A stretch of DNA of 64,000 nt from Pirellulales bacterium (GCA_041746715.1 JBGTGN010000095.1:12685-76684); one strand, 5' to 3'; numbered from the stretch's first letter, positions 4,921 through 29,831 are shown. A program made the numbers and translations. The notes: generated from the letters alone by a model not told the origin.

Positions 4921-4940
4921 CATGGCCCGCTTTTGGGCGA

Positions 4941-5780: not shown

Positions 5781-5790
5781 TGTCCCTGAG

Positions 5791-5906: not shown

Positions 5907-5932
5907 TACGCCCGGGTGGATTCGAACCACCG
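5907..5932 (-). repeat. 26-bp exact duplicate of the tRNA-Arg 3' end (T-arm plus acceptor strand)
   Basis: tacgcccgggtggattcgaaccaccg is identical at 5907-5932 and 6030-6055. Confidence 0.9.
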
Positions 5933-6103: not shown

Positions 6104-6221
6104 GAAGGGGTTTTGGGGTCCCGGATGGGGGTTTGTCGTCGCGGGTATTCGGGCCGGCCACGGAATTTCATTTCTACCATGTCGTTCGCGAGGTCGCCGC
6201 TGAGGTCGTTGTGAGCGTCCG

Positions 6222-6584
6222 TCAGGCTTCTTCGTCGGTATCGGCCGAAGGGCCATCCCCCTCGCTCGTTGCGTCTGTTGGGCGTCGTCGTCGATCGCTC
6301 CGCCGGAAGACAGCCACGACGTCCTCGACCGGGACCACGAACAGCAGGTTGTTGCCCTCAAGATCGACCGGAATCGCGTTCTTGGGATGGAAGAGCACTT
6401 TGTCGTATTTCGCGATCGGCACGTCGGCGTCGCGTTCGACCTGAAGGCTCACCTCCACGACCCTCCCGCTGATTGTCGGAATCTCGGCCTTGTCGGGAAG
6501 CACGATCCCGCCACGCGTGGTCTGCCGGTTCTCGTCCTTGCGGATGAGCACCCGCGTTCCCAATGGCTCGACAAATTCATCCAT
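6222..6584 (-). CDS. groES: co-chaperonin GroES (Cpn10) family protein with acidic C-terminal tail
   Basis: LGTRVLIRKDENRQTTRGGIVLPDKAEIPTISGRVVEV is a typical Cpn10 mobile-loop region. Start chosen at MDEFVEPLG. No groEL is adjacent. Confidence 0.7.
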   Translation of the reverse strand: MDEFVEPLGTRVLIRKDENRQTTRGGIVLPDKAEIPTISGRVVEVSLQVERDADVPIAKYDKVLFHPKNAIPVDLEGNNLLFVVPVEDVVAVFRRSDRRRRPTDATSEGDGPSADTDEEA

Positions 6585-6696
6585 TACGTGCCCCTCTTGC
6601 TGCCCGTCAAGGCTCCTGGCCACGCGGGATGTCACCTTGCCGTTCTTCACACCACGGTTCTACCATACGCGACATTTCCGCCTCGCCGAGCGCACG

Positions 6697-12675: not shown

Positions 12676-12705
12676 TTGAACCCGCCCCAATTTTGGTGGT
12701 ACTGT
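12676..12705 (+). promoter_or_regulatory. candidate sigma70-like promoter (TTGAAC-N18-TGgTACTGT)
   Basis: -35-like TTGAAC (12676-12681) and extended -10-like TGGTACTGT (12697-12705). The kinase ATG at 12710 would then be at or near the TSS, implying a leaderless mRNA. Promoter rules for this lineage are uncertain. Confidence 0.2.
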
Positions 12706-12709
12706 CGAG

Positions 12710-14902
12710 ATGATGAGTGAACGAGATGACTCACGGCCTTCGACACCCCCGCAGGATGGGATGCGTGAAGGCCGTGGAGACGACGCGACCGTCATATCGG
12801 CGCCTGATGCCGAGGCTGTCGTCACGGGAGGCTCGACCGTCTCGCGGGCGAGCGAGAGCCGCGGCACGACCGCCGACATCGGTCGTGTGCTTGAGGGCAC
12901 GATGCTTGGGCCCTACCGGCTCGACCGCTTCATCGGCGGTGGCGGCATGGGGGCCGTGTTTCAGGCCCTCGACACCACGCTCCACCGAACGGTCGCGATC
13001 AAGGTGCTTGCCCGGCACCAATCCGAAGACGAGGAGAACCTCAAGCGGTTCCGCAATGAGGCCCAGTCGTCGGCACGGCTTGACCACGAGAACATCGGCC
13101 GGGTGTATGCCGTGGGTGGTGACCAGGGGTGGAACTACATCGTGCTCGAGTACATCGAGGGCGTGAACCTCCGTGATCTCGTGCGGGAAGAGGGGCCCTT
13201 CGATTCTGCCCGAACGGTTGACGTCACGATTCAAGTTGCCGAGGCACTCCAGCATGCCTCCGAGCGAAATGTCGTCCACCGTGATATCAAGCCCTCCAAC
13301 ATCGTGATGACACCGGCGGGCCGGGCCCGGATCGTCGATATGGGCCTCGCGCGTTTGCACCAGGTGGCTGGCGATGCCGAGTTGACCGTCAGCGGCATGA
13401 CTCTCGGCACTTTCGACTACATCTCACCCGAGCAGGCCCGCGATCCGCGGGTGGCCGATGTCCGGAGCGATCTCTACTCGCTCGGCTGCACGATGTTCTT
13501 CATGCTGGCGGGCAAGCCTCCCTTTGCCGATGGCACGATGGTGCAAAAGCTCCTCCAACACCAGCAGGCCGAGCCGCCGGCCATCGACCAGATTCGTTCC
13601 GACGTTCCGCGTCGCTTGGCAGCGATCATCGGCCGGCTCATGGCCAAGGATCCAGCAGACCGCTACCAGCGTCCGTTGGAGCTTGTCGCCGATCTCCTCG
13701 CCTGTGCCGACGAGGAAAGGTATGTCCTGTCGGCGCCGAGGGCACCCGCAGCGGTGGGAGTCCCACCGCCGCGGCCGCGGGCTTCGCGGCTCCCCTGGCT
13801 CCTCCCACTCGTGCTCCTGGCCGCGATGGTAGGTGTGCTCTGGTTTCGGGCCGCATCAGGTCGCAAACTGACCGTTGAAAATCCTTCTGTCGGGGGGCTG
13901 GCGGCACCGCCCGCGGTCATGGGCGAATTCGCCGAACCGCCTTTGACACCGCCACGGGTTGTCGCGGACGCGGAGGCGCTCCGGCTCGCGCTCCAGGCTG
14001 GCGACGCTGACAGTGTCATCGAGATCGATGGAGATGGCCCCTTCGACGTTACTTCATTCTCCGTGGACGGTCGGCGGCTGGCGCTTCGCGCCGCGGTGGG
14101 GCGAGAGCCTGTGGTGCGAATTCCACCAGCGACGGATGGCACGTCGATCCATGTTGGCACTGGAAGCCTGTCGCTCTCGGGGATTGCGGTTCACCTGATG
14201 GATGGCCCGAGGCCCGCGATCGGCAGGCGAGCGCTCTTTTCTATCGCTGGAGGCAACCTCACATGTACCGCCGTCGTTCTCCGAATGCCGACGCTCCGTC
14301 GGTCAGTGAGTGCTGGCGCCGAGCCAACTTCGTTCATTCACGTCGGCGACCCCGGCATGCCTGGTGCGCCGTCAGCTACCATGCTCGACTTCCAGAGTGT
14401 TCGCGTTGGAGGTGATGCCACGCTCGTCGCCGTCGAGATGCCACGAGGTGGCCGAATCGATTTCCAGTGGAATACCGGCGCGGCGTTGACAAGACGCCTG
14501 ATCGCAGCCGAGGGGGCACGAAGCGGAGACGTTGTCATCAGCGCACACTTTACTGATATCGTGGCGGCCTGCGGTGATGCCGTCGTGAGCCTCCGCGACT
14601 CACCCGAACTTCCTCGTGTCCCTCGGATCGACATGATCGCCACGGGCTGTCGGTTCGTGGTGGCCGACCCGGCGCGAGCGTTCATCGAACAAGCAGGGAT
14701 CGCCGAGCCCGCGGCCTACCTGGCGGCCATGTCGTGGGAGGACCGCCACGGCCGCTATGAGGGCACCGGCATATTCCAACGGATCGACGGGGCAGCGGAG
14801 CGGGTCGACACGCCGTTTGGGCCACCGGCCGCGCCGTTTGTCCACGATGGTCGCGTGGGGGCGGCGCTCGACCCTTCCACCTGGGCCGGCTGGGGCGACT
14901 GA
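12710..14902 (+). CDS. membrane Ser/Thr protein kinase with large uncharacterised extracytoplasmic C-terminal domain
   Basis: Hanks kinase motifs GGGGMGAVF, VAIKVL, HRDIKPSNIV, DMGLAR and SPEQ. TM segment LPWLLPLVLLAAMVGVLWF. About 360 aa C-terminal with no motif I recognise. Confidence 0.85.
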   Translation: MMSERDDSRPSTPPQDGMREGRGDDATVISAPDAEAVVTGGSTVSRASESRGTTADIGRVLEGTMLGPYRLDRFIGGGGMGAVFQALDTTLHRTVAIKVLARHQSEDEENLKRFRNEAQSSARLDHENIGRVYAVGGDQGWNYIVLEYIEGVNLRDLVREEGPFDSARTVDVTIQVAEALQHASERNVVHRDIKPSNIVMTPAGRARIVDMGLARLHQVAGDAELTVSGMTLGTFDYISPEQARDPRVADVRSDLYSLGCTMFFMLAGKPPFADGTMVQKLLQHQQAEPPAIDQIRSDVPRRLAAIIGRLMAKDPADRYQRPLELVADLLACADEERYVLSAPRAPAAVGVPPPRPRASRLPWLLPLVLLAAMVGVLWFRAASGRKLTVENPSVGGLAAPPAVMGEFAEPPLTPPRVVADAEALRLALQAGDADSVIEIDGDGPFDVTSFSVDGRRLALRAAVGREPVVRIPPATDGTSIHVGTGSLSLSGIAVHLMDGPRPAIGRRALFSIAGGNLTCTAVVLRMPTLRRSVSAGAEPTSFIHVGDPGMPGAPSATMLDFQSVRVGGDATLVAVEMPRGGRIDFQWNTGAALTRRLIAAEGARSGDVVISAHFTDIVAACGDAVVSLRDSPELPRVPRIDMIATGCRFVVADPARAFIEQAGIAEPAAYLAAMSWEDRHGRYEGTGIFQRIDGAAERVDTPFGPPAAPFVHDGRVGAALDPSTWAGWGD

Positions 14903-19608: not shown

Positions 19609-20046
19609 TCATTCCCCGATGTCTTCATTCCACAGTTCGGGGTGGCGTGTCATGAAGTCCTGCATGAGGGCCAGGCACCGGGCGTCATCCCGCACCTCGA
19701 TCGAAACGCCCCGCGATGCAAGCCACGCCTCCTCTCCCATGAACGATCGGTTCTCACCGATCACGACCCGTGGGATGCGGTAGAGCGCGATCGCCCCGCT
19801 GCACATTGGGCAGGGCGAGAGGGTCGTGTAGATCGTGCACTCGCGATAGAACGACGCTGGCCGCCTCCCCGTACGCTCAAGCGCGTCCATTTCCCCGTGG
19901 AGGATGGCGCTGCCCTGCTGAACACGCCGGTTGTGTCCTCGGCCCACGATCTCGCCGTCATGAACGATCACCGACCCAATCGGAATGCCGCCTTCGGCAA
20001 CTCCCGCCTCTGCTTCCTCGATCGCCGCTGCCATGAATGGGTCCAT
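19609..20046 (-). CDS. CMP/dCMP-type zinc deaminase (nucleoside/cytosine deaminase-like)
   Basis: HGEMDAL and PCPMCSGAI zinc-binding motifs. Confidence 0.85.
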   Translation of the reverse strand: MDPFMAAAIEEAEAGVAEGGIPIGSVIVHDGEIVGRGHNRRVQQGSAILHGEMDALERTGRRPASFYRECTIYTTLSPCPMCSGAIALYRIPRVVIGENRSFMGEEAWLASRGVSIEVRDDARCLALMQDFMTRHPELWNEDIGE

Positions 20047-20234: not shown

Positions 20235-20921
20235 ATGAAGGTCTTGATCCTGAGCGACAACGAGCGGGTGTACGGAAACATCCGGGAGGTTGTTGACAAA
20301 CACGCTATTGCTGGAGCCAGTTTCGACTTCAGGTGTCGGCCCGGGAGCAAGATTGCGCATGTCCTCGAGCCGATCGACGTAGACGCCATGCTGGCATACG
20401 ACGTGATCATCTCGACCCACTCGAATCACATTCTGCCGCCGAGCGTGGTGCAAAGTCGCTTGTGTGTCAATTTGCACCCTGGCTACAACCCATACAACCG
20501 AGGATGGCATCCGCATGTGTTCAGCATGCTCGATGGTTCGCCGGTTGGTGTGACCCTGCACCTCATGGACGAACGAATCGACACCGGCGCGATCATTGAT
20601 CGCGCGGCAGTGCCAGTCGAAGCCACCGATACGGGTGGGGATGTGCTCGAAAAAATCTACGATCTCGAGAAAGTGATGTTCGACCGGAACATCGAGAACC
20701 TCATTGCTGGAACCTTCTTGACACGTGCCCCGGAGTTCACCGGCAAACTCAATACGCGGAGAGACTTCGAGGCGCTCTGTGCGCTTGACCTTGACGCCGT
20801 AGGAACTCTACGTGAGCACATCCACTTGCTTCGGTCGCTCACGAATATCAACTACAGGAACGCTTTTTTCATTGACGATGGCCAAAAGATCTTCGTCAAC
20901 GTAGACCTCAAACGGAAATGA
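20235..20921 (+). CDS. sugar N-formyltransferase (dTDP-4-amino-4,6-dideoxyglucose formyltransferase-like)
   Basis: Formyl_trans_N core NLHPGYNPYNRGWHPHVFS and HLMDERIDTGAII. Codon third positions are visibly more A/T-rich than in neighbouring genes. Confidence 0.75.
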   Translation: MKVLILSDNERVYGNIREVVDKHAIAGASFDFRCRPGSKIAHVLEPIDVDAMLAYDVIISTHSNHILPPSVVQSRLCVNLHPGYNPYNRGWHPHVFSMLDGSPVGVTLHLMDERIDTGAIIDRAAVPVEATDTGGDVLEKIYDLEKVMFDRNIENLIAGTFLTRAPEFTGKLNTRRDFEALCALDLDAVGTLREHIHLLRSLTNINYRNAFFIDDGQKIFVNVDLKRK

Positions 20922-20938
20922 GGCGTGGCGAATAATAA

Positions 20939-20959
20939 TGGGCGGCGAGGGACTCGAAC
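20939..20959 (+). repeat. attL core (displaced tRNA-Val 3' fragment)
   Basis: tgggcggcgagggactcgaac is identical to 29758-29778. Confidence 0.9.
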
Positions 20960-20985
20960 GAACCGAGTTTTCGCCGCGAAACGGC

Positions 20986-21165
20986 ATGGTAGTAGATTCA
21001 CCCGGCACAGAATCCGGCACAGTGCCGCCCGGATTGGCTGATCTCGTCAAGCTCATGGCAGGGCTGACGCCGTCTCAAGTCAGTGCTCTCGTCACCCTGG
21101 CTCAATCTCTCGCCGGCTCTCCGGAGGGTGAGAAGGGCAAAAGGGTGATAAGGGGGAAAAGGTGA
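20986..21165 (+). CDS. small hypothetical protein (doubtful)
   Basis: The track ORF 20938..21165 begins inside attL. The C-terminal part (GLADLVKLMAGLTPSQVSALVTLAQSL) looks protein-like, but it overlaps repeat motifs. Confidence 0.25.
   Translation: MVVDSPGTESGTVPPGLADLVKLMAGLTPSQVSALVTLAQSLAGSPEGEKGKRVIRGKR
21001..21023 (+). repeat. candidate integrase arm-type site (left): CCGGCACAG-AAT-CCGGCACAG
   Basis: cccggcacagaatccggcacagt is identical to 29634-29656. Confidence 0.7.
21123..21165 (+). repeat. purine-rich iteron-like cluster (GGGTGA x3, 17-nt period)
   Basis: GGGTGA at 21126 and 21143, and AGGTGA at 21160. About 32/40 identity by eye to the reverse complement of 28161-28200. Confidence 0.55.
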
Positions 21166-21474
21166 TGAGCCCCGCGGACGCGGAGAGTCGATAAGCATGG
21201 GCTTTCGACGGTAGCACACCCTTAGACGCGAGGCGTTCTAGGGAGCCGTGGCTCCCTCGCCACCCTTTTCTCCCTTATCCCCGTCAATCGAACGCCTCCT
21301 TGGCTATCCCCCTGCCTCCCTATCGACGGCAACCGCTCGCTCATCGTCGCATCATCGACGCTCATCGTCGGATCAAAGCCGATCCCGTGAGCCTCGCTCC
21401 ATCGCCGGAGGATGGTACTGTACGGGCATACACTACCCGTGATATACTGGCGGTATCCCAAAGATGGAGCCGCG

Positions 21475-21735
21475 ATGACACACGATGCCGTAGTTCTCAA
21501 TCGACGCGAAGCCGCCCGCTATGTCGGCAGGGCGGAGAGCACACTCCGCGAGTGGGCGAGGTGGGATATCGGCCCGCCCTTCTACAAAAGCGGACCGCAT
21601 CGGCAGAGCAAGGTCTGCTACCCGCTCGCGGGACTTTCCGCATGGGTGGCCGCCGGATGCCGGCTCGATCGCCGCGGCAGTAAGCCCGCCGGCATGCCAT
21701 CGTTCACGCCACCGCCCCGGAGCCGGGCATCGTGA
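21475..21735 (+). CDS. AlpA/excisionase-type HTH (HTH_17-like) DNA-binding protein
   Basis: VVLNRREAARYVGRAESTLREWARWDIGPPFYKSG...LAGLSAWV fits the MerR-superfamily Xis/AlpA pattern. Start chosen at MTHDAV. Confidence 0.65.
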   Translation: MTHDAVVLNRREAARYVGRAESTLREWARWDIGPPFYKSGPHRQSKVCYPLAGLSAWVAAGCRLDRRGSKPAGMPSFTPPPRSRAS

Positions 21736-22463
21736 GCATGGAAGCCCTCGCGAACGCCGTGATCGATCGGGCGGAATCGCTCCTGGCAGCGGTTCAGTGT
21801 GACGAGCCCGCGATTCACGTTCTCGACATGGCGGCGACCGATGGCACGGGCGGATTGTCGCACGGCAGCGGTCACCACGTCGCCCAGGCTCACGGCCTCG
21901 CCGGCTGTGCGGTCATGGTTCGCGTGGCTCCGTTTCTCGCGGAATTCCTCGCCGACATTCCCGCCCGGCATCTCGCTCACGTCAGACCGGCTCTCGTGGC
22001 GATGCCGATCGAATTCCTCGCGGCTCACGAGGCCGGGCATGCCATCGTGAGCCCGCTCGATCCGTCCGAACTAGACGCGACCGAAGCCGAACGGCTCCGC
22101 GGCCTCGCGACTGCCGACACGGTGACGCTCCGCGATCGTGCCGAGTCTCATCATCCCGCATGGGCGGCAGCGGTGGCGATTCTGTACGCCCGCGGCATGG
22201 CTCTCCGGCCCGATCATGCAACTCAGTGGCGAAAGCTCGCCGTGGCTGAATTTGAGGGCTACGGGTTCGACTTTGCCACGGTCGCGGCCCTTGTGGCTGA
22301 CGTGCCGGCGGGAGCCTCGATCCGGCAGCTTGTGGCCGATGCCGATTGGCTCGATCGCATCACGGCAGCATGCCCGACGATCGAAGAACGTCGCCGGCTC
22401 ATGGCCGAACGAAACAACGTGCCGGGTGTGCCGGCTCGTGAACTTGCGGCGGTGGCCGCGTAA
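21732..22463 (+). CDS. hypothetical protein with HExxH (HEAGH) putative zinc-metallopeptidase motif
   Basis: FLAAHEAGHAIV. 4-nt overlap with the upstream HTH gene. The family was not verified. Confidence 0.5.
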   Translation: MSMEALANAVIDRAESLLAAVQCDEPAIHVLDMAATDGTGGLSHGSGHHVAQAHGLAGCAVMVRVAPFLAEFLADIPARHLAHVRPALVAMPIEFLAAHEAGHAIVSPLDPSELDATEAERLRGLATADTVTLRDRAESHHPAWAAAVAILYARGMALRPDHATQWRKLAVAEFEGYGFDFATVAALVADVPAGASIRQLVADADWLDRITAACPTIEERRRLMAERNNVPGVPARELAAVAA

Positions 22464-22480
22464 CTGGGAGGGATTCTTTC

Positions 22481-23206
22481 ATGTCGAGTCTTTTGGAACT
22501 GATCCGCGGCCGCAAACGTGAGCGAGCCTCCGGCGTTGTCGATCTCGCCAAACGTGTCGCCGATGGCGAGCGAGTCGATCTCGACCGCATCGAAGATGCC
22601 CTCCTCAGAGCCGGCATGGAGCCCGAAGAATTCGACACGCTCACGGAACTGTGCCGGCAGCGTGCCGCATGGCGGAAGCGTGCCGCGGGGCTGCCGGGTG
22701 CCGAGCGTGAAGCCGCCGCAACTCAGGCGAAGATCGACGCCGAAGATGCCAAGCTCGCCGCCGCTCGCCGGGCTCACGAGTCAGTAACGGAGCCGATGTA
22801 CGAAACGCTCCGGGTGATCGAGTCTCGCATTCTCGACTGCCGAACGGCTCACGGTGAACTTGCAAGCGAGCACAACGTGCCGGAGGCTCTCCGCACGAAA
22901 CGACGCGAAGCCGCAAGGGCTCATGAGCAAGCCGCGGCGGCTCTCAGGACCGCCAAGGCATCCCTCGCGACAGCGGAGAGCCATGCCGAAGGGCATCGGC
23001 GTACCCTCGGTGCCGACGTTCCCAAGCAGCTTTCGGCACACGAGAAGGGGCTTTTGCAACACGCTGACGCTCTCGCCGCCGAACGGCTCCGCAATGCAGA
23101 GCGAACGATCGCGAGACTCGCTCCCGAAGTCGCCGACTTGGCCCGACGCGAAGCCGAAGCCCGTGCCGCCCTCACGGCTGCCGACAAAGCGATCCTCGAT
23201 TTTTGA
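22481..23206 (+). CDS. hypothetical coiled-coil protein
   Basis: Ala/Glu/Arg-rich heptad-like sequence throughout. GGGAGGG RBS. Confidence 0.6.
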   Translation: MSSLLELIRGRKRERASGVVDLAKRVADGERVDLDRIEDALLRAGMEPEEFDTLTELCRQRAAWRKRAAGLPGAEREAAATQAKIDAEDAKLAAARRAHESVTEPMYETLRVIESRILDCRTAHGELASEHNVPEALRTKRREAARAHEQAAAALRTAKASLATAESHAEGHRRTLGADVPKQLSAHEKGLLQHADALAAERLRNAERTIARLAPEVADLARREAEARAALTAADKAILDF

Positions 23207-23316
23207 TTCTCGTGAGAGGGTGCCAAACCGTGGAGAGCCGGTGTTGGACGGCCCTCCGCGGGGCGGTGCCGGAAGTTGTACCGAGTACAAGATCGATCAT
23301 CACTCGAAAGGAAACC

Positions 23317-23541
23317 ATGTCCGCTCAGTCTGTATCCGCTGAAATTGTCGCCGAAGCCCGCCGGCTTGATTCGATCGGGCATCCCGTGATCGTCTCAACT
23401 GCCGAGCCCGCGACCGTGACCGATGCCGCGGAGCAATATCGTCTCGCATGCCGGCACGGTGACGGTGAGCACGCTCTACGTCGTCTCGCGTTGGCTCTCG
23501 CTGATGGCGGGCGTGGCGTGGCAGGCAGGATCGAGACGTGA
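23317..23541 (+). CDS. small hypothetical protein
   Basis: AAGGAAACC RBS before ATG 23317. The track ORF starts further upstream at 23203. Confidence 0.45.
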   Translation: MSAQSVSAEIVAEARRLDSIGHPVIVSTAEPATVTDAAEQYRLACRHGDGEHALRRLALALADGGRGVAGRIET

Positions 23542-23917
23542 GCCATGCCGCCAATGTGTCCCCGGCGATTGTGTCCGGTCAAGAAACCGCCGCCACCGCC
23601 GCCGGAGAATCCGCCACCGCCGACAACCGGCCCGACTTGAGGGGTATCACGAGTCGGCTCGATCCCCGATCGGGCGTTACACGCGAAATACGGAGGCCGT
23701 TTTTTTGGAGAGCGAGCAAGTCGAACGCGATCCGGGGACCGGGGACGTTCACACTGCCGGAGAGGGCACGATTGATTTTGCTCCGGGCGTGGCGGCTCGC
23801 GTTGTTGAACTCCGGGCGACGGTTCCGAACTGGCCCTTCGGATTGACGGGGAAGCCTCGCCCGACCGGCTTGGCTCAATTTTTGGCGTTGACGGACAGCA
23901 GGTATCGGACAGATTGA
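23538..23917 (+). CDS. hypothetical coding region, frame ambiguous (possible -1 shift at T7 run 23700-23706)
   Basis: GTGA-overlap start at 23538 gives a natural-looking N-terminus that becomes Arg-rich junk downstream. The -1 frame (track ORF 23423..23917) shows the opposite pattern. Confidence 0.3.
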
Positions 23918-24016
23918 AACACGGCTCGCGGACTGATCCTCCGCATAGGCAGGCGTGGCGGCTGTTCTCCCAGACGGCCGCCCGCCCGCCGGCCGAAACA
24001 CACTGGGAGAAACACC

Positions 24017-24730
24017 ATGCCGCAAGGCATCACGCGACTGATCGAGATTGCCCGACGATGGCACGAAACACTGTGGGCATATCAACCGCCGCCGGGCTCC
24101 ACGATCGACGTGAGTTTCCTCCGGCAATTCGAGCCGGCTGATTCCGTTGTCGATGCCGCGGCTCAAGATGCCGCCCGCGAAGCCCTCGCGGCCTCGATCC
24201 CCGATCGTGCATTCGATGCCGTCGAAAGCCTCGCGACGGCATGCCGATCCCTCCACGGCATCATGGGTGACGAGCAAGTACAGGCGGCTCTGGACTCGCT
24301 CACGTTAGCGATCCGAAAGGCGGAAGTGTTCGCGGCCGTGGCGGCGGAGCAAAGTGACACGATGCCACTTTGCTCCGATGCCGGCGGTGCGGTGGACACG
24401 AAAACGGAGCCACCACAGAAACGACCGCCGCGACGGTATAGCCCCGAACTGAAAGCGGACATCTTGAAGTATGTCGTCAGCAGGGGCAGCGAGGGCATAT
24501 GGGAATTGGTGATCGACTTTTGCAATTCGCGGCGTGCTAGATGGAATGACATTCTCAAGGCCCACGATGGCGAGACTCCGCAGCAAGCCGCTCTGCGAGT
24601 ATGGGAAGCCGTCACGACATGGGAACGGCGAGAGGAAGAACGCCGCCACCGACAAACACCGACAAAGGCACCGACAAGCCCGAAGCCCAGGCAGTCAGGG
24701 GCGAGCCGTGGAAAAGCCCGGCATCGGTAG
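24017..24730 (+). CDS. hypothetical protein (C-terminal part RRYSPELKADILKYVV resembles HTH_Tnp_1-type DNA-binding helices)
   Basis: GGGAGA RBS. Basic Pro/Lys/Arg-rich tail. Confidence 0.55.
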   Translation: MPQGITRLIEIARRWHETLWAYQPPPGSTIDVSFLRQFEPADSVVDAAAQDAAREALAASIPDRAFDAVESLATACRSLHGIMGDEQVQAALDSLTLAIRKAEVFAAVAAEQSDTMPLCSDAGGAVDTKTEPPQKRPPRRYSPELKADILKYVVSRGSEGIWELVIDFCNSRRARWNDILKAHDGETPQQAALRVWEAVTTWERREEERRHRQTPTKAPTSPKPRQSGASRGKARHR

Positions 24731-24745
24731 GCGTGGCTCCATTGT

Positions 24746-24764
24746 GGGGACAAAGTTTGTCCCC
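24746..24764 (+). terminator. perfect 9-bp-stem hairpin between two island transcription units
   Basis: ggggacaaa-g-tttgtcccc followed by gtttgt. Lies 16 nt after the stop at 24730. Confidence 0.4.
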
Positions 24765-24843
24765 GTTTGTCGGTGTAACTCGTGAACGCTCACGAAGAAG
24801 GCACCGCGAAAACCCGTGATGATGAACGTGTACATCCGTCAAT

Positions 24844-25113
24844 GTGACGGGTGACGTTCACCACGAGGTTTTACAAATGCTTCGCAAGACAGTCACCACG
24901 AGTGACAAGCCGGCGATCGAGCCGGATGGAGCGATCGACGTTCACGCGGTCGCGAGTTTGTACGGGTGCTCGGTTCGCCACGTTCTCCGCATGGCAGACA
25001 CGGGCGAAATTCCTCCCGGGTTCCGGCTCCGGAATCTTCGCCGATGGAAACGATCGGTGATCGTCGCCGACATCGCGAGCAAGGCTGACGCGAGCAACGG
25101 GGCGAAGCCGTGA
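24844..25113 (+). CDS. excisionase/AlpA-type HTH (HTH_17-like) protein
   Basis: IDVHAVASLYGCSVRHVLRMADTGEIPPGFRLRNLRRWKRSVI. GTG start at 24844, or ATG at 24877. Confidence 0.65.
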   Translation: MTGDVHHEVLQMLRKTVTTSDKPAIEPDGAIDVHAVASLYGCSVRHVLRMADTGEIPPGFRLRNLRRWKRSVIVADIASKADASNGAKP

Positions 25114-25328
25114 ACCGGCAGCAGCTTGTTCGCCGCCGGGCTCACGAGTCAGTAGAGGCCGGCAAGTTTTTTCACTCACAAGCCCGGGCGGCTCAACGCT
25201 CCGGTGATCTTGCGGGTGCGATCCGTTGGGCTCAGAGGGCGGTCAACGCTCTCAGGCACGATCGGATTTTGTGTGCGGAAGCGGATCGTTTTTTGAATCG
25301 TCTCAACAATGGAGGTGCCGACCGATGA
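25110..25328 (+). CDS. small hypothetical protein
   Basis: GTGA overlap upstream and ATGA overlap downstream, suggesting translational coupling. Confidence 0.45.
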   Translation: MNRQQLVRRRAHESVEAGKFFHSQARAAQRSGDLAGAIRWAQRAVNALRHDRILCAEADRFLNRLNNGGADR

Positions 25329-25690
25329 TCGATGAGAACTTCTACGGATTGCCGTGCCCAGTGCCGGTATCAGAATCGAAAAATGACAAAGTGGCGTGGG
25401 TCTATCGCCTCGCCCTTTCGGCTCGCTCGGAATTGCTTCGGTATGAAATCGGCGACACGCTGACGCCGATCGCAACCGGAGTGAGTGCGGCCGTCACACG
25501 GTGGTGCCTGGCATGTGACGACGATGACCCGCTCGCTCGCGACTGGCTCACGGTCAATGGGTGCGACCCGTTCGCGGTGGCGTGGCTCGCGGCTGCGATC
25601 GCGGAGATTCTCTGTCTCGATCCCGTGACCCAAGCGTGGCTCTCGTCGCATCGGCTGCCGTCGCGGGTTATGCGAAAGGATGGTGAGTGA
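25325..25690 (+). CDS. hypothetical protein
   Basis: Start at MIDENFYG is coupled to the previous stop. No recognisable motif. Confidence 0.5.
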   Translation: MIDENFYGLPCPVPVSESKNDKVAWVYRLALSARSELLRYEIGDTLTPIATGVSAAVTRWCLACDDDDPLARDWLTVNGCDPFAVAWLAAAIAEILCLDPVTQAWLSSHRLPSRVMRKDGE

Positions 25691-27861
25691 GAATGGAAGC
25701 TCTCCAACAATGCCGTGATTTTCTTTCGGTGATCTTCGATCCCGACGACGTGATCGAGTTTCGATGCTTGACGACCGGACAGCGACCGCAGCAGCGGTGG
25801 GGCTCGATCGGTGATCTTCCCTCGATCGTCCCCTGGCTCGTGAAGTGCAACGCGAAGCTATCGTGCTACTTCGGCGGCAACCCTCGCCGGGAGCACGGTG
25901 GTGGCGAAGCAAAAGACGTGCTCATGGCAAGGTGCCACTATGCCGACTTTGACGGTGGCGAGACAGCCGAGAGTGCATGGGCGAAGATCGAGGCTGCGGG
26001 GCTTCCCAAGCCCACGGTGACGCTCTCGACCGGCGGTGGCGTGCATGCATGGTGGCGGCTGGCAGAGCCGTTGCACGACCTTGCCGAGTGGCAAGTGCGG
26101 CAACGCAAGCTCAACGCGAAGCTAGGCTCCGATCCCACGATCAAAGATGCCGCTCGCATCATGCGACTGCCGGGCTTCGCGAACGTGAAGAGTAAGTATC
26201 CGGACCCGAAGCCGGTGTGCATGATCGAGGATATAGACGCAAGCCGCGTCTATCCGGCCGATGCCGTCACGCCAGCAGTCATGAGCAAGATGACGCGGGC
26301 ATTCATCGACCGCGGGGAATGTCACAAGAATGACGGCAGGCGTGACACTTGTTTCCTCGCCGCTACTGATCTCCGCGATCATGGGTGGGCAGTAGAGGAA
26401 GCGGTCGCCGTGCTCATGAAACGGATGGAGACATTCGCCGATATTCCTCAAGACGAAATCGAGGATTGCCGGCGGCAGATTCCGAACGCATGGAAGCGGG
26501 AGCCGCGGACGGAGCCCTTCGGTACTGCCGGTGGAAGGCAAGTGCCGGCGGTCACCGATGAAGATATCGACGCTATCCCGCTCGATACCCGCCCGTGGCC
26601 GGCTCGCCCTTCGGCGATGCTCTCGCATGGCGTGGTGGGCGAACTTTTGGATCGAGTCGAGAGCGAGACGGAAGCCGATCCGGTCGCCATCGCAACTACG
26701 TTTCTCGTGAGTCTCGGCAGCGTGATCGGGCGTGGCCCGCATGCCGTTGTCGATGGCAACCGCCACGGCGTGAACTTGTTCGCGACGATCGTGGGCGGAA
26801 CCAGCGAGGGCAGGAAAGGCACGTCTATGTCGATCGTCCGGGCAGTGTTTCGCGGCATCGATGACGAGTGGGTGCGGAACTGCCGGACGCCGAGCCTCAC
26901 GAGTGGCGAGGGGCTCATCGATCTTATCCGCGATGACGAGCACGTCGTGAAAGTGGACTCGAAAACGGGCGAGCCGAAAACGATCGTCGTGCCGGGTGTC
27001 GCGGACAAGCGATTGCTATTCGAGTGCCAAGAGTTGGCGTCAGTCATGCGTGCGGGCAAGTCGGAACGATCGACGCTCTTTCCCACGATCCGCGAGGCGT
27101 GGGATGGTCAAGACCTTCGGACGCCGACAAAGAACAATCCGCGAAAGGTGACGGACCCTCACGTCTCAGGCGTGGCCCATATCACGCCGGAGGAACTCGC
27201 GAAGCTCCAAACGGACGCCGACATTTTTGGCGGGACGTGGAATCGGTTTCTGTGGATCGCCTCACGTCGTGCTCGGCTGTGCCCTCACGGTGGCGATTTT
27301 GAAGACGTGCGGCATCTTCAGGACAAAGTGCGATCGGTTGTCGTGAACGCTCAGAATGCCGGACGCATGCGACGGACCGTGGCGGCTGATCGATTGTGGG
27401 AGCAGGAATACTACCGCCGTGCCGAGAGCCTCCCCGGCGGCATGGTGGGTGCGATCCTCGGTCGTGCCGAAGCTCAGCTCCTCCGGTTGTCGATGCTCGC
27501 GGCATTGTGCCGTGGCGAAAGCGTTGTCGATGAAGTCGATCTCGCCGCCGCCCTCGGTCTCTGGCGGTACGTCGATGAGACGGTGCGAATGCTATTCGGT
27601 CACGATGAAGACCCGCTCATCCCCAAGATCGTCGCGGCCGTGCGGGCGTCACCGGGCATAAGCCGATCGGAACTCCATCGGACGGTGGCGAAAACGAAAC
27701 CCGCGGCGGCATTCGTGGCAACGCTCGGTCGTGCCGAGAGTATGGGCGTGGTGGTCCGCGAGGTGATCGAGACGGGCGGACGGCCCCGGGAAGCGTGGAA
27801 GCCTCGCGAGATGGAGCGAGTCGCGAGAGTGCCGGCCGTGAACTTCGGGAGGGTACTGTGA
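25687..27861 (+). CDS. bifunctional AEP-type primase-polymerase / P-loop (DUF3987-like) helicase
   Basis: AEP motifs IFDPDDVIEF, TGGGVHAWWRL and RIMRLPGFAN. C-terminal Walker-A-like GGTSEGRKGTS. Confidence 0.8.
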   Translation: MRMEALQQCRDFLSVIFDPDDVIEFRCLTTGQRPQQRWGSIGDLPSIVPWLVKCNAKLSCYFGGNPRREHGGGEAKDVLMARCHYADFDGGETAESAWAKIEAAGLPKPTVTLSTGGGVHAWWRLAEPLHDLAEWQVRQRKLNAKLGSDPTIKDAARIMRLPGFANVKSKYPDPKPVCMIEDIDASRVYPADAVTPAVMSKMTRAFIDRGECHKNDGRRDTCFLAATDLRDHGWAVEEAVAVLMKRMETFADIPQDEIEDCRRQIPNAWKREPRTEPFGTAGGRQVPAVTDEDIDAIPLDTRPWPARPSAMLSHGVVGELLDRVESETEADPVAIATTFLVSLGSVIGRGPHAVVDGNRHGVNLFATIVGGTSEGRKGTSMSIVRAVFRGIDDEWVRNCRTPSLTSGEGLIDLIRDDEHVVKVDSKTGEPKTIVVPGVADKRLLFECQELASVMRAGKSERSTLFPTIREAWDGQDLRTPTKNNPRKVTDPHVSGVAHITPEELAKLQTDADIFGGTWNRFLWIASRRARLCPHGGDFEDVRHLQDKVRSVVVNAQNAGRMRRTVAADRLWEQEYYRRAESLPGGMVGAILGRAEAQLLRLSMLAALCRGESVVDEVDLAAALGLWRYVDETVRMLFGHDEDPLIPKIVAAVRASPGISRSELHRTVAKTKPAAAFVATLGRAESMGVVVREVIETGGRPREAWKPREMERVARVPAVNFGRVL

Positions 27862-28376
27862 TGGCCGGCATGGCATTGTCGGATGCCCTCGCCGCAGTGG
27901 ATGCCGCCGGCGGGCGGCTCTCGCTCGCGGGTGATCGCGTCCGGGTGGACGTGACACGGGAACTGCCGGAGCCGGTATGGCAGGCTCTCGCGGCTCACCG
28001 GGCGGAATTGGTGGCGAGCCTCGGGCGGCGTTACAACCGGGCGAAGAAGACAGCCGAAGAGTCTGGCCGAGATGGTAAGTCAAGGGTGGGACAAAATGCC
28101 CCACCCTCCGAAAGAACATCGTCGAAGCTCGCCAAAGAGCACGGCGTTGACGACCCGCCGACCTTTTCACCCTTTCCACCCTTTTCCCCTTTCCACCCTG
28201 ACAGACGCGGCGAGCAACCGCTACCGCTCCCGCCGGGCGTGGCATGCTGCGATCGGTGCGGATCGACAGAGACGACCGACAGCGTGATTCACGGTGGGCA
28301 GTCTCTACGGCAGGACTGCCGGCAGTGTGGACGGTTCCGGAAGTTTGTCCGATGGCACGGTATCACGATGCCGTGA
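27861..28376 (+). CDS. hypothetical protein with C-terminal CxxC...CxxC zinc ribbon
   Basis: CCDRCGS...CRQCGRF. The ATG overlaps the primase stop by 1 nt. Contains the PFPPFSPFHP segment encoded by the CACCC repeat cluster. Confidence 0.5.
   Translation: MAGMALSDALAAVDAAGGRLSLAGDRVRVDVTRELPEPVWQALAAHRAELVASLGRRYNRAKKTAEESGRDGKSRVGQNAPPSERTSSKLAKEHGVDDPPTFSPFPPFSPFHPDRRGEQPLPLPPGVACCDRCGSTETTDSVIHGGQSLRQDCRQCGRFRKFVRWHGITMP
28161..28200 (-). repeat. CACCC(TTT) repeat cluster, inverted partner of 21123-21165
   Basis: ttcaccctttccacccttttcccctttccaccctg. Lies about 240 bp upstream of the integrase start. Confidence 0.55.
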
Positions 28377-28436
28377 TCGACGTGGCAGCGGTGACGGTGA
28401 ACGGGTACGTTCTCAGACATCCCCAGGGAGGAAATC

Positions 28437-29798
28437 ATGGCAACAATCGGCAGCGAGAAATTCACACGCAAGAATGGCAGCACGACCACGACCTACCGCA
28501 TCTTGTGGTGCGATGAAGATGGCCGGCGGAAAACTCTCCGGCTCGGGGCAGTGCCGAAGCGGGTAGCCCAGGAATACAAAACCCACCTAGAGACGATCAT
28601 CGCGGCCCAGCGTGGCGGGTGGGCCGTGGACGCCGATACTGCCGCGTGGATTGGCTCGCGACCGAATGACGTTCACGAGAGGCTCGTGACGGCGGGGCTA
28701 TTCGAGCCGCGGGCGGAGTCTCAGGCGAAAGCGATCGTGACCCTCGGTGAGTTGTGCGAGACGTTCAAGGGCAGAAAAACCGTCAAGCCGTCCACGGCGG
28801 CGGCATACGATCAAACTCTCGATTCACTCAAGGCAGTGCTCGGGGCGGATCGTGACATAGCAACCCTCACGACGGCTGACGCTGACGAGTGGAAAAAGGC
28901 GATATCCACGGCAACCAAGGGCGAGGGCAAGCGGAAGAAAAAACGCACGACCGAAGATGGCCGGCTCTCGCATGCCACCGTGGCGAAGCGGGTGTGCGTC
29001 GGCAAGCAAGTTTTCGGGAAAGCGGTGTCATGGGGGCTTTTGGAGAAAAACCCGTTCTCAGGGCTCAAGGCGGGCTCCCAGGTGAATGCAGCACGGCAGC
29101 GGTATATCGACGTGCCGACGATCGAGCGAGTGCTCGCGGTGGCTCCCGGCCCGCAGTGGCGAGCCCTCATCGGGCTGTGCCGGTATGCCGGGCTCCGATG
29201 CCCTTCGGAAGTCGGGCTCCTGACGTGGGACGACGTGGATCGCGACACGGGCAAGCTCACGGTACGATCTCCGAAAACGGAGGGACACGGGGCAGGGCAT
29301 GCGGTTCGGTTCGTGCCGATCATGCCGCGGCTCATGTCGCTCCTGGCTGACGCATTCGACGCGGCCCCGCCTGGCAGTACGCTCGTCGTGCCGATGGCCT
29401 CGGATGGAGGCGTGAACCTTCGGACGGGTTTCGAGAGGATCATCACGCGGGCGAAGTGCGAGACGTGGCCTCGATTGTTCCAAGCCCTACGGGCGAGCGT
29501 GGAAACCGATTGGGTTCAACGTTACCCGGCTCACGTTGTCGCCAAATGGCTCGGGCATTCGCCACGGATCGCACAGGCTCACTATCTCATCACGACCGAA
29601 GCGGACTTCCGGGCAGCGATCGAGTACGACCTACCCGGCACAGAATCCGGCACAGTCAGTGCCGGCAGGCGGGTGTCAGCAGTGGACAAGAGTACACGTC
29701 GTGGTTTCGTAACTCTCGGGAAACTCGCTAATCGCGATGTACTGAACAAGTGTCTACTGGGCGGCGAGGGACTCGAACCCCCAACCCCCTCGGTGTAA
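28437..29798 (+). CDS. tyrosine-type site-specific recombinase/integrase
   Basis: AGLRCPSEVGLLTWDDV (Arg I), LRASVETDW, WLGHS, AQAHY (catalytic Tyr). The ORF runs 41 nt into the tRNA-Val gene. Confidence 0.88.
   Translation: MATIGSEKFTRKNGSTTTTYRILWCDEDGRRKTLRLGAVPKRVAQEYKTHLETIIAAQRGGWAVDADTAAWIGSRPNDVHERLVTAGLFEPRAESQAKAIVTLGELCETFKGRKTVKPSTAAAYDQTLDSLKAVLGADRDIATLTTADADEWKKAISTATKGEGKRKKKRTTEDGRLSHATVAKRVCVGKQVFGKAVSWGLLEKNPFSGLKAGSQVNAARQRYIDVPTIERVLAVAPGPQWRALIGLCRYAGLRCPSEVGLLTWDDVDRDTGKLTVRSPKTEGHGAGHAVRFVPIMPRLMSLLADAFDAAPPGSTLVVPMASDGGVNLRTGFERIITRAKCETWPRLFQALRASVETDWVQRYPAHVVAKWLGHSPRIAQAHYLITTEADFRAAIEYDLPGTESGTVSAGRRVSAVDKSTRRGFVTLGKLANRDVLNKCLLGGEGLEPPTPSV
29634..29656 (+). repeat. 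candidate integrase arm-type site (right)
   Basis: Identical 23-mer to 21001-21023, lying inside the integrase 3' coding region. Confidence 0.7.
29758..29778 (+). repeat. attR core (within tRNA-Val 3' end)
   Basis: Identical 21-mer to 20939-20959. Confidence 0.9.
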
Positions 29799-29831
29799 GC
29801 GAGGTGCTCTGACCAATTGAGCTAGCCGCCC
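29758..29831 (-). tRNA. tRNA-Val (anticodon UAC)
   Basis: Reverse complement GGGCGGCTAGCTCAATTGGTCAGAGCACCTCGCTTACACCGAGGGGGTTGGGGGTTCGAGTCCCTCGCCGCCCA. Anticodon loop is CTTACAC. Confidence 0.93.

Follow-up and report, generated by a model that had tools for sequence, protein, structure and literature searches.

The block between positions 20,939 and 29,778 of the 64,000-nucleotide Pirellulales sequence analysed here (the window) is probably an intact site-specific integrative and self-replicating element without packaging genes, for which a helper phage would be the likeliest vehicle. Related genomes carry the same locus empty, which identifies the block as a true insertion; its site is the 3′-end of a tRNA-Val gene on a Planctomycetota chromosome. 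It is very likely to be functional as an integrative and replicative element. An earlier note on this DNA had suggested a Planctomycetota-like host, in agreement with the nearest species representatives, which were Planctomycetaceae and Pirellulales MAGs. The features of the element are listed below.

20938–21165, plus strand: severed 3′-end of the int ORF (tail of the attP-form integrase), from joining attR to attL
20939–20959, no strand: attL core, exact copy of the last 21 nt of tRNA-Val
21000–21023, plus strand: putative P′ arm-type repeat, 2 x CCGGCACAG at 12-nt spacing, exact 24-nt repeat
21125–21163, plus strand: iteron-like cluster A, 9-nt GGGTGAAAA-like units (regular-expression count)
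21254–21282, minus strand: iteron-like cluster B, in opposite orientation to cluster A, with 101 nt separating the arms
21475–21735, plus strand: HTH_17/AlpA-Xis-like protein 1, ORF open from 21412
21732–22463, plus strand: 243-aa protein with an invariant HExxH motif (2 database relatives)
22481–23206, plus strand: 241-aa Ala/Glu/Arg-rich protein, partner of the HExxH gene (tblastn)
23230–23541, plus strand: 103-aa hypothetical protein (gene call in L001)
23705–23917, plus strand: 70-aa hypothetical protein, gene call uncertain (alternative ORF 23538–23846)
24017–24730, plus strand: 237-aa ORFan, no full-length relative
24877–25113, plus strand: HTH_17/AlpA-Xis-like protein 2, ORF open from 24844
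25110–25328, plus strand: 72-aa hypothetical ORF, translationally coupled on both sides, absent from the public annotation
25325–25690, plus strand: 121-aa conserved partner upstream of the replicase (o10; relatives)
25693–27861, plus strand: replicase, AEP primase (RepB_primase type) fused to a DUF3987-type helicase (profiles)
27861–28376, plus strand: 171-aa conserved partner downstream of the replicase (Zn-ribbon, o12; relatives)
28152–28199, minus strand: iteron-like cluster C, 4–5 units, within the linker of the 171-aa partner gene
28437–29798, plus strand: tyrosine integrase, integrated (truncated) form, 453 aa (phrog_1; lambda-Int-like, arm-binding N-domain)
29633–29656, plus strand: putative P arm-type repeat, 2 x CCGGCACAG, within the 3′ part of int
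29758–29778, no strand: attR core, identical to the tRNA gene 3′-end (exact repeat, tRNA call)
29758–29831, minus strand: tRNA-Val(TAC), target gene, intact after integration

Insertion in tRNA-Val

The tRNA-Val(TAC) was called on the minus strand by both ARAGORN and Rfam (69.2 bits). The earlier note had described a second copy of the last 21 nt of this gene, and a search of the 64 kb located the 21-mer TGGGCGGCGAGGGACTCGAAC at exactly two positions, 20939–20959 and 29758–29778, with 0 expected from shuffled sequences. The former copy was not called as a tRNA by ARAGORN or Rfam; the same core was found in the related attL copies of L158, L184 and L179. Between them the repeats enclose 8,819 bp in which, as had been described, a chain of ORFs on one strand ends with the integrase reading into the tRNA gene. 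The coupled overlaps reported for this chain were 4 nt long at 21732, 23538, 25110, 25325 and 25687, whereas the one at 27861 proved to be a 1-nt TGATG overlap.

Comparison of the tRNA-Val locus between genomes, a check proposed in the earlier note, revealed empty sites in related metagenomic genomes. The empty sites in L132, L146, L165 and L201 have the order deaminase, ~40 bp, tRNA-Val and aspS, in genomes that are non-isogenic with the window (76–79% nucleotide identity). A sister occupied site was found on a single contig (L158, attL; L153, attR), and over its final ~45 nt the left flank of L158 was nearly identical (2 differences) to L146 and L165, both of them empty. In the nearest GTDB species (L007) ordinary host genes follow tRNA-Val, and no homologue of any ORF of the element was present. 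The same tRNA is occupied elsewhere by other integrases, and the closest host relatives, L117 and L145, encode a symporter and a 50-aa integrase relic beside it, so that these are not clean empty sites.

The integrase and its attP-spanning ORF

Profile searches recovered both the integrase and the primase that the earlier note had proposed. The integrase, whose ORF extends 41 nt into the tRNA gene, matched phrog_1 (E=1.6e-34) and, below the gathering score, Pfam Phage_integrase (PF00589, 19.6 bits), a domain carried by most of the close ones among its 680 homologues. The catalytic residues R245, R346, H368 and Y377 (P0189 numbering) were invariant in 39 sequences including the window protein; in the same set K272 was nearly invariant and the first His of HxxR was replaced by Gln. 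An AF2 model of the homologue P0189, which was modelled in place of the window integrase and is 48% identical to it, aligned with full-length lambda Int (1z1b; E=4e-9, 394 columns). The 24-nt arm repeat has exact copies only at its two listed positions, and the arm 9-mer was enriched (7 observed vs 0.9 expected). L004 and L254 have paired repeats at equivalent positions, with a sequence specific to each element.

Joining attR to attL extended int from 453 to 515 codons. The severed tail encodes ...GGEGLE-RTEF...GTESGTV...LADLVKLMAGLTPSQVSALVTLAQ, and tails homologous to it occur where int is uninterrupted, on three contigs that are circular or in attP form (L002, L159 and L254), as well as in about 16 database integrases of the long form; the frame is open for 65–108 codons in 5/5 attL/attP copies. 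An ORF at 20938–21165, which starts in attL, was considered as an independent gene and ruled out, being the severed int 3′-end. The new point here is that the int ORF spans attP and that integration therefore replaces the conserved C-terminal tail, a disordered linker plus helical hairpin of roughly 60 aa, with a 6-residue end from the tRNA gene. This pattern is conserved throughout the integrase family, whose targets are several tRNAs.

Replication genes and iteron-like clusters

The replicase, which starts at 25693 in the public gene call (722 aa), matched RepB_primase (39.8 bits, cut-off 24.3), helicase PHROGs and the PrimPol AEP domain of PDB 6zp9 (1.6e-8). It has >1000 homologues, and its C-terminal ~58% showed 65–81% identity to proteins whose N-terminus is Prim-Pol instead. 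The 121-aa partner matched its counterparts in L004 (53%) and L002 (37%), and the L159 version forms the N-terminal part of a fusion with a DnaG/Toprim-DUF3987 replicase. The 171-aa partner, which consists of a ~55-aa N-terminal domain, a variable linker and a C-terminal CxxC...CxxC zinc ribbon, follows the replicase in all seven compared relatives of the primase/helicase lineage.

A regular expression for the iteron-like units found 10 in the whole 64 kb, and two clusters of the element account for 7 of these. The motif of cluster A also lies directly downstream of the attP-form int stop codon in L002 and L004, and in relatives iteron-like clusters lie either where the replicase gene ends or within the 171-aa partner gene. 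Cluster C is a candidate origin. The iteron and arm-site roles are putative, being assigned solely from position and conservation.

Other proteins of the element

Two AlpA/Xis-type HTH genes had been predicted, and both products matched HTH_17 and phrog_66, albeit below the Pfam cut-off: protein 1 with E=0.0014 for HTH_17 (below the gathering score) and 6.5e-5 for phrog_66, protein 2 with 5.4e-5 (23.8 bits; gathering score 27) and 1.8e-6. Homologues of both in sister elements carry PF12728. The gene for protein 1 is called in L001 and has a homologue in the L002 circle; a homologue of protein 2 is present in L004.

Only 2 database relatives of the 243-aa protein were found, in which H99, E100 and H103 are invariant, and its AF2 model was too poor to use (pLDDT 53). 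In other small integrase elements the HExxH gene is constantly beside a homologue of the downstream 241-aa gene. The product of the latter, probably a coiled-coil protein, gave zero family matches in profile searches and was detected by tblastn in L002 (40%) and in L250 and L251 (33%). Neither homologues nor family matches were found for the 103-aa protein, and ORF 23538–23846 is doubtful by codon-position GC. The 237-aa ORFan, possibly cargo, had a full-length match only to itself among 1.84 billion representative proteins and matched nothing in Pfam, PHROG, PADLOC or PDB. In all, five to six ORFs of the element, one of them this ORFan, are without detectable function, and the middle block is element-specific. 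The earlier note had recognised no capsid, portal, tail, lysis, relaxase or T4SS genes, and searches for these and for defence genes in Pfam, PHROGs, NCBIfam and PADLOC likewise gave zero matches.

Circular relatives and packaging genes

The closest relative is an 8,628-bp circle found twice (L002 and L003), with a replicase 78% identical to that of the window and with genes o2, o3, o4, o10, o12 and int collinear with it. This circle also lacks packaging genes, and its presence in a metagenome is no evidence of encapsidation; IMG/VR contained neither this circle nor any close relative. Other excised or attP forms were seen in L006, L159 and L253/L254. L006 is a 13,728-bp circle with 99.98% identity to an element integrated at tRNA-Arg in L005, with which it shares a 47-bp core. 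The core of the window element recurs in L159, a contig in attP form.

Packaging genes were found in cousins linked to the window element through the helicase block or the integrase family. L005/L006 encode an endonuclease and a TerS (Terminase_4 26 bits, gathering score 24.7; phrog_83), a layout with TerS that was found again in L244, L245 and L247. L254, a 7.3-kb circle with an integrase of the same family as that of the window (48.6% identity) and 1 mismatch in the att core, encodes TerS (2.4e-40), HNH (2.2e-24) and a head protease (3.4e-39). The window element belongs to a so far undescribed family whose other members occur as free circles, sometimes with phage-packaging genes. At the core of this large family are an integrase of the lambda type, the replication block [o10]-[primase/helicase]-[Zn-ribbon o12] and HTH genes resembling AlpA/Xis.

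Comparison with known satellites

Satellite P4 of E. coli integrates in a tRNA gene, has in alpha one large primase-helicase whose iteron binding sites, ori and crr, lie apart, and depends on the cos packaging of its helper, having no terminase of its own. The window element shares the tRNA integration, the single large primase-helicase, iteron-like clusters at separated sites and the lack of a terminase. It differs in gene order, in its primase (AEP type, whereas that of P4 is Toprim) and in its DUF3987-type helicase, and no PHROG or Pfam match to Sid, Psu, Delta or Epsilon was found on any uncharacterised ORF. With PICI/SaPI it shares an integrase, an AlpA/HTH regulator, a primase-replicase with iterons nearby, a size of 8–15 kb, flanking att sites and the lack of tail and lysis genes, but it has no terS, no capsid-morphogenesis components and no divergent repressor/int module. 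The larger cousins L005/L006, L244 and L254 (TerS, with or without HNH and head protease) fit the PICI model better.

The earlier note had taken an integrase, an alpA-type regulator and a primase without structural genes to define PICI/P4-like satellites. This gene set is present in the att-flanked element, but it is not the PICI definition of SatelliteFinder, in which terS and capsid morphogenesis are among five core components (PMC10085698). The element has the integrase, the regulator (AlpA, MerR or Stl type; here two weak HTH_17/phrog_66 proteins) and the primase-replicase, and PHROGs revealed no tail or holin genes, as in a PICI. No ORF matched Terminase or TerS in Pfam or PHROGs, a very divergent TerS being conceivable; no head-and-packaging PHROG, such as a cpm-like capsid morphogenesis or redirection gene, was matched, and no cos or pac feature was detected in the element. 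By the SatelliteFinder criteria it is only a 'Type C', a three-component set of the sort that the authors set aside as potential defective PICI, mobile elements of another kind or aggregates arisen by chance (PMC10085698), and the satellite claim is therefore unproven for it.

PICMI, the phage-inducible chromosomal minimalist islands of Vibrionaceae, have a core of only integrase, AlpA-type regulator and primase, are about 6 kb, integrate next to fis, need the int-overlapping gene iolg and have experimentally proven helper dependence (PMC10803314). The window element is likewise small, with the same recognisable core and neither terS, capsid-remodelling nor other packaging genes. PICMI excise to a replicating circle (PMC10803314); for the window element circles are known from relatives. 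The phylum differs, the target is tRNA-Val rather than fis, the replicase is a primase-helicase fusion, and int, which closes a single array of genes running in one direction, is preceded by a gene that ends 60 nt before its start. Satellite status is plausible for the window element, and is strengthened because relatives carry TerS, HNH or head protease and because the PICMI, whose satellite nature is proven, make do with int, alpA and primase (PMC10803314).

Tycheposons of Prochlorococcus and other marine bacteria have a tyrosine recombinase abutting a tRNA, a partial tRNA repeat and xis plus primase/helicase genes; a single backbone occurs in PICI-like (terS/MCP) and non-packaging versions, and integrase relics and foreign DNA build up at the tRNA (bioRxiv 10.1101/2020.12.28.424599). 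The window element has the same recombinase position, tRNA repeat and replication hallmark genes and is set alongside tycheposons by these features, but its host is of another phylum and it has no recognisable nutrient-acquisition cargo. The earlier note knew of no such elements in this lineage, and the literature library searched contained no paper linking phage satellites with Planctomycetes.

Proposed life cycle and alternative explanations

Excision would give an 8,819-bp circle. The heterobivalent integrase would bind the paired CCGGCACAG arm repeats and recombine the 21-nt core, assisted by one HTH_17 protein as excisionase or activator, and excision would reconnect the int ORF over attP into a 515-aa form with the C-terminal helical hairpin missing from the integrated copy. 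The AEP-primase/DUF3987-helicase would replicate the circle on the GGGTGAAAA-like iterons beside and downstream of its gene. As there are no virion, packaging or conjugation genes, the element must presumably hitch-hike, and the likeliest vehicle would be a helper phage, in which case the element would be a minimal satellite of the PICMI/P4-like kind, because cousins sharing the helicase block or integrase family carry TerS, HNH or head protease. Taken by itself, a phage as the vehicle has a little under an even chance.

Less probable, but still to be taken seriously, is an integrative plasmid or tycheposon-like shuttle that excises and replicates without parasitising a phage, carries the ORFans of the middle 23.2–24.8 kb as cargo and spreads vertically or through vesicles, transformation or generalized transduction. 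The element-specific middle block and the lack of detected packaging or interference genes are consistent with this, as is a tRNA-Val locus that resembles an accreting island, with a low-GC formyltransferase, a symporter and an integrase relic in relatives. Among tycheposons one int/replication backbone can be combined with terS/MCP or with cargo, and transport in vesicles is possible (bioRxiv 10.1101/2020.12.28.424599). However, the supposed cargo shows no recognisable host-benefit function, TerS, HNH or head protease genes occur in cousins linked by the helicase as well as in those linked by the integrase, and PICMI show that satellite life is possible without packaging genes (PMC10803314).

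An island that was formerly mobile and is now fixed and decaying in the lineage is improbable: the exact element was found in one genome only, integrase relics lie at the same tRNA in relatives and DNA beside attL is missing relative to them, yet the two att cores, like the two 24-nt arm repeats, have stayed identical, the replicase has the full length of its 78% relative, int and its severed tail are both open and in frame, and translational coupling is kept. Actinomycete AICEs of the pSAM2 type also have a backbone of Int, Xis and a Prim-Pol-type Rep, which, with the genes all on one strand, would suit an IME or AICE-like element mobilised by helper conjugation machinery. This is very improbable, as no library searched gave a relaxase, oriT-associated, FtsK/Tra or T4SS match and none of the examined relatives carries such genes, several having phage packaging genes. 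The least credible reading makes the five to six ORFs without assignable function very divergent structural proteins of a miniature prophage; once the replicase (2.2 kb) and the integrase (1.4 kb) are subtracted from 8.8 kb the space is too small, PHROGs gave no capsid, portal, terminase large subunit, tail or lysis match, and the uncharacterised proteins are small, one being probably a coiled-coil.

A possible integrase switch

We consider it possible, though doubtful, that small hitch-hikers of this kind, integrating in tRNA genes, form a family found throughout the Planctomycetota, which would be the first phage satellites of the phylum and whose lambda-type integrase would switch with integration state. 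Speculatively, different integrases in the integrated and episomal states could act as a built-in state switch. If so, integration would clip the conserved hairpin, and a switch at the level of the recombinase would set directionality or stability without a classical repressor. Another gene spanning attP is reportedly the intP/intX gene of Myxococcus phage Mx8. In mycobacteriophages BPs, Brujita and Charlie, which have integration-dependent immunity, attP also lies within a gene (PMC3694055), and as in the window element the episomal and integrated genomes make proteins with different C-termini. In those phages the repressor is split and a degradation tag is lost, whereas in the window element it is the integrase itself that is split, losing a ~60-aa linker and conserved helical hairpin.

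Element boundaries and organisation

We conclude with high confidence that the 8,819 bp block between 20939 and 29778 is an intact element of a Planctomycetota family not described before, whose small members integrate at tRNA genes and replicate themselves. ARAGORN and Rfam placed the target tRNA-Val(TAC) gene at 29758–29831 on the minus strand, and this tRNA was the sole Rfam match. The terminal 21 nt of the gene (TGGGCGGCGAGGGACTCGAAC) had two exact copies in the window, at 20939–20959 (attL core) and 29758–29778 (attR core), with none expected from shuffled sequences, which confirmed the repeat that the earlier note had reported at both ends. The attP junction predicted from the window was ...GTGTCTAC followed by the core and GAACCGAGTTTTCG; the predicted attB junction was the core-proximal flank AATAATAA, the core and CCCCAACCCC.

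The chain of coupled plus-strand ORFs described in the earlier note was present with its 4 nt start/stop overlaps, except that the overlap at 27861 is a single nucleotide (TGATG). Codon-position GC favoured most of the element ORFs, the exception being 23538–23846. The last ORF, the integrase gene (28437–29798), enters the tRNA gene by 41 nt and so reads into it as had been claimed. The GC content of the block (0.58–0.69) was near that of its flanks, and the formyltransferase gene just left of attL was lower (0.54–0.57). A sigma-70 promoter and terminator scan gave no signal exceeding that of shuffled sequences.

Insertion status of the tRNA-Val locus

The AspRS encoded beside the tRNA was closest to those of Planctomycetaceae and Pirellulales MAGs (80% and 62–67%). 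Both flanks were syntenic in L007, the nearest species representative; there, ordinary genes of metabolism and regulation come after tRNA-Val, and the element ORFs have no homologues. A metagenome scan with the 21 nt core returned 120 loci. Four of these (L132, L146, L165 and L201; 76–79% nucleotide identity) carried the deaminase gene found at 19609–20046 of the window, then approximately 40 bp, tRNA-Val and aspS, and are empty sites; the presence/absence polymorphism anticipated at this locus thus exists among relatives. The left flank of another locus, L158, differed from empty sites L146 and L165 at two positions in the last ~45 nt before the core, and its element DNA after the core started with GAACCG, as in the window. 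Integrase, core and tRNA followed one another at L153, on the same contig as L158. Together with the empty sites, L158 and L153 form a matched attB/attL/attR set of a sister element.

At least 1 kb upstream of such a tRNA end was available for 83 loci, which encoded an integrase homologue (8), an integrase relic (2) or neither (73). The closest relatives, L117 and L145 (82–86% identity), were not clean sites: a symporter gene and a 50 aa integrase fragment lie between formyltransferase and tRNA. The symporter (441 aa; L145 3657–5710, and L117) is missing from the whole window, as is the integrase relic. These insertions, with the integrase homologues and relics among the 83 loci, show that the tRNA-Val locus is a hotspot of repeated integration where DNA has accreted and is decaying; it looks like an accreting, eroding tRNA island.

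Homology of the window to L117 and L145 stopped 9 nt past the formyltransferase stop codon and was followed by AATAATAA and the core (20235–20938). The formyltransferase was also absent from more distant relatives. On a further contig, L184, the core occurred twice (8631–8651 and 10005–10025), 1.37 kb apart, each copy following similar sequence that ended ...GGTGGTAG and resembled the pre-core 3′-end of the L173 integrase gene. The arrangement at tRNA-Val is suggestive of a tandem or a relic; integrase queries found no match on L184.

Circular and integrated relatives

The closest replicase relative, P0002 (78% identity), was encoded on contigs L002 and L003 from two assemblies, which may share one sample of origin. 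With terminal overlaps of 127 and 28 nt, both contigs resolved to one circle of 8,628 bp with the gene order of the window: HTH, o3-like/o4-like pair, HTH genes, o10-like gene, replicase, o12-like gene and integrase. A cousin whose helicase domain is 66% identical was integrated by tRNA-Arg(tct) in a MAG (L005), and a 13,728 bp circular contig (L006) was 99.98% identical to it; the two shared a 47 bp core comprising the 3′ part of the tRNA. Additionally, the attP-form contig L159 had the exact core of the window between its integrase gene and non-tRNA DNA. L002/L003, L005/L006 and L159 thus document that members of this family excise and occur as episomes; the copy in the window is known in its integrated form.

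Gene content and replication module

The integrase was called from phrog_1 (E 1.6e-34), with Pfam Phage_integrase falling under its cut-off. The replicase (722/724 aa; 25693–27861) had a RepB_primase-type AEP domain (39.8 bits against a cut-off of 24.3) that matched the PrimPol AEP domain of PDB 6zp9 (1.6e-8); its helicase part matched helicase PHROGs, and DUF3987 was found in its homologues. Two small proteins gave weak HTH_17/phrog_66 matches ('excisionase and transcriptional regulator'), and their counterparts in sister elements bore PF12728. The remaining element ORFs had no match in Pfam, PHROGs, NCBIfam, PADLOC or PDB sequences. For all unknown ORFs, Pfam at E≤10 returned noise only (TMP_4, TPR and Rotamase, E 0.05–0.9); o3, o7, o12 and the integrase had no matches among PDB sequences, and PADLOC found no defence systems. 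On these profile, PADLOC and PDB results, the list of genes present and absent in the earlier note was correct, with weaker statistical backing for the integrase and HTH genes than it had implied.

More than 1000 replicase homologues were found. The C-terminal ~58% of the protein was 65–81% identical to proteins with a Prim-Pol N-terminus in place of the RepB-type domain, and the L159 replicase (3140–5818, minus strand) had a DnaG zinc-ribbon/Toprim primase on the same helicase, fused to an o10-like N-terminus. Since the shared DUF3987 helicase carries three unrelated primase domains, RepB-type AEP (window), Prim-Pol with PriCT_1 (L005, 10001–12235) or DnaG zinc-ribbon with Toprim (L159), primase domains have been exchanged on a helicase that is itself conserved. 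Counterparts of o10, the ORF upstream of the replicase gene, occurred on L002, L004 and L159. Those of o12, directly downstream, were found in seven relatives, all in the primase/helicase lineage. In o12 a linker of variable sequence joins a conserved N-domain to a zinc ribbon at the C-terminus.

Nine-nucleotide units resembling GGGTGAAAA were nearly restricted to the element (10 regex matches in 64 kb) and formed three clusters:

21125–21163, plus strand: cluster A
21254–21282, inverted relative to cluster A, with 101 nt between the arms: cluster B
28152–28199, within the coding linker of o12, where it encodes FSPFPPFSPFHP: cluster C

Such clusters are conserved across the family: in relatives they lay in o12 or where the replicase gene ends (3′-end), and directly past the stop codon of the attP-form integrase gene; those of L004 were at 1577–1605, 7534–7561, 12419–12445 and 12703–12730. 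The origins of SaPIs sit 3′ of rep, and P4 has ori/crr. By this analogy the clusters are candidate origin iterons, and they may be either iterons or operators.

The HExxH protein o3 gave an AF2 model of pLDDT 53 from three sequences, and one idea is that it is a candidate ImmA/IrrE-like protease. A weak o3 match at 58128–58658 of the window proved spurious, being HisG. The pair of o3 and the coiled-coil protein o4 (21732–23206) recurred on L250 (5049–6568), L251 (3656–5046) and L003 (1421–2853), this module moving among small integrase elements with differing replicases (DnaB-like, or an unknown 508 aa protein); it might be a protease-based sensor. A search of 1.84 billion representative proteins gave no relative over the full length of the ORFan o7 (237 aa; 24017–24730). 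A likeness of its 'RRYSPELK' stretch to an IS3 or terminase HTH motif was unsupported by protein-database and Pfam searches.

Recombination module and the integrase ORF across attP

A 24 nt exact direct repeat (ACCCGGCACAGAATCCGGCACAGT), consisting of two CCGGCACAG units 12 nt apart, was found only at 29633–29656, 125 nt before the attR core, and 21000–21023, 40 nt after the attL core. The two copies are candidate P and P′ arm-type integrase sites that would flank the core in attP. L004 (tRNA-Leu) and L254 had paired repeats at equivalent positions, with sequence specific to each element. The AlphaFold model of P0189, a 48% identical long-form homologue of the window integrase (mean pLDDT 76.5), had three domains: N-terminal (three-stranded beta), core-binding and catalytic. 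Its best PDB matches were to full-length lambda integrase. The model fits a heterobivalent, arm-binding integrase.

Joining attR to attL lengthened the integrase ORF from 453 to 515 codons, the gain being an ORF (20938–21165) that 'starts' in attL. The extension was contiguous in the episomal contigs L002 (500 aa; 5590–7092), L159 (559 aa; 1375–3054, minus strand) and L254 (505 aa; 3538–5055), and was present in ~16 long-form database integrases. It reads, in order, an arm-repeat-encoded G(A/T)ESGA, a variable stretch, a core-encoded vGxxGxE, a second GAESGA and LAxxVxxWxxL(T/S)PxxRxxIxxI. The frame was open for 65–108 codons in all five attL/attP copies bearing the window core, and the tRNA side stopped after 12 codons. 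Since the ORF spans attP in this way, integration is predicted to swap ~62 integrase residues for six tRNA-encoded residues, PPTPSV. In the P0189 model the residues around the core (398–473) were disordered (pLDDT 31–41) and the final 30 formed a confident and conserved helical hairpin (pLDDT ~90), for which we infer a role in directionality or stability. The A before the attL core makes an in-frame ATG, from which translation of the severed tail could in principle give a 75 aa peptide.

Mx8 intP/intX is also a gene across attP. In BPs-type mycobacteriophages the repressor gene spans attP, and its viral and prophage forms differ (PMC3694055); the split gene there is the repressor, whereas here it is the integrase, across the whole family. 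The attP-spanning ORF was kept both in the small elements and in viral contigs of 40–64 kb. Three IMG/VR viral contigs of 42–64 kb (L256, L257 and L258) encoded integrases of the same family (37–39% identity), some in the long attP-spanning form with matches over residues 1–504; these contigs are possible helper-type phages.

Relationship to phage satellites

The earlier note treated int, alpA and primase as the operational definition of a satellite. The SatelliteFinder model contradicts this: a PICI has five components (int, regulator, pri-rep, capsid morphogenesis and terS) and is accepted with four or five only, three-component 'Type C' sets being left out by its authors, who saw in them possible defective PICI, mobile elements of other kinds or genes aggregated by chance (PMC10085698). 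As the element has exactly three components (int, regulator and pri-rep), it falls outside both PICI and P4-like elements. No look-alikes of packaging or interference genes were found in the element or its closest circular relative, and IMG/VR contained no close replicase relative and no exact attL/attP signature. The proposal of a satellite or minimal replicative element thus stands for an integrative element with replication genes, and satellite status goes no further than Type C.

Members of the family must hitch-hike to move, and we tentatively consider it quite possible that transfer depends on phage. The absence of packaging and interference genes bears against a satellite, but PICMI, with only int, alpA and primase, are experimentally proven satellites that are packaged as concatemers (PMC10803314). 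The satellite reading is kept alive by this precedent and by two groups of relatives. Prim-Pol cousins (L005/L006, L244, L245 and L247) encoded a Terminase_4 small terminase, an endonuclease and a weak HNH match in a conserved 11–14 kb layout, with the integrase at tRNA-Arg as end gene. Two circular IMG/VR contigs of roughly 7.3 kb, L253 (7437 bp) and L254 (7355 bp), had 78–85% identical DNA and long-form integrases of the window's family (48.6% identity). L254, whose attP core was one base off that of the window, encoded TerS (2.4e-40), HNH (2.2e-24), a head maturation protease (3.4e-39), a DnaB-like helicase, an AlpA-like protein and Int, and its integrase tail resembled the attL tail of L179, a contig syntenic with the host genes of the window. 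Gene annotation covered L254; both contigs are strong candidates for genuine phage satellites within this host clade.

An integrative plasmid or shuttle that is no satellite is less likely; it has a precedent in tycheposons, in which a single int/replication backbone also serves non-satellite shuttles (bioRxiv 10.1101/2020.12.28.424599), and the same lack of packaging genes speaks for it. A fixed relic, a conjugatively mobilised element and a mini-prophage are, even taken together, improbable. On the evidence weighed here, we rejected the readings as prophage, AICE/IME and relic. The element is of like kind to PICI, PICMI, P4 and tycheposons, and differs from them in its co-directional layout with int last at the tRNA, its integrase ORF across attP and its swappable primase domains.

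As the earlier note supposed, no paper in the literature searched linked phage satellites with Planctomycetes. To our knowledge, hardly any mobile genetic elements of Planctomycetota have been characterised, genetic tools for them are almost lacking, and their gene-transfer routes are poorly understood. We define here a compact cassette for integration and replication that appears to be complete (attL, attR, reconstructed attP, arm sites and candidate origin), with empty sites and circular relatives documented alongside; the cassette is a starting point for integrative and replicative vectors and for asking whether Planctomycetota have phage satellites. The attP-spanning integrase ORF yields a testable hypothesis on the control of recombination direction. 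Were the block merely an ordinary 'Type C' island, it would be a worked example that int, alpA and primase alone do not make a satellite.

The window also contains a tRNA-Arg(tct) gene (6029–6103), the target type of the TerS-bearing Prim-Pol cousins (L005 and L244), which appears unoccupied because no second integrase was detectable in the window. On L244 (12037–13366) ARAGORN placed tRNA-Arg on the integrase strand; the tRNA and int converge on L005 and in the window.
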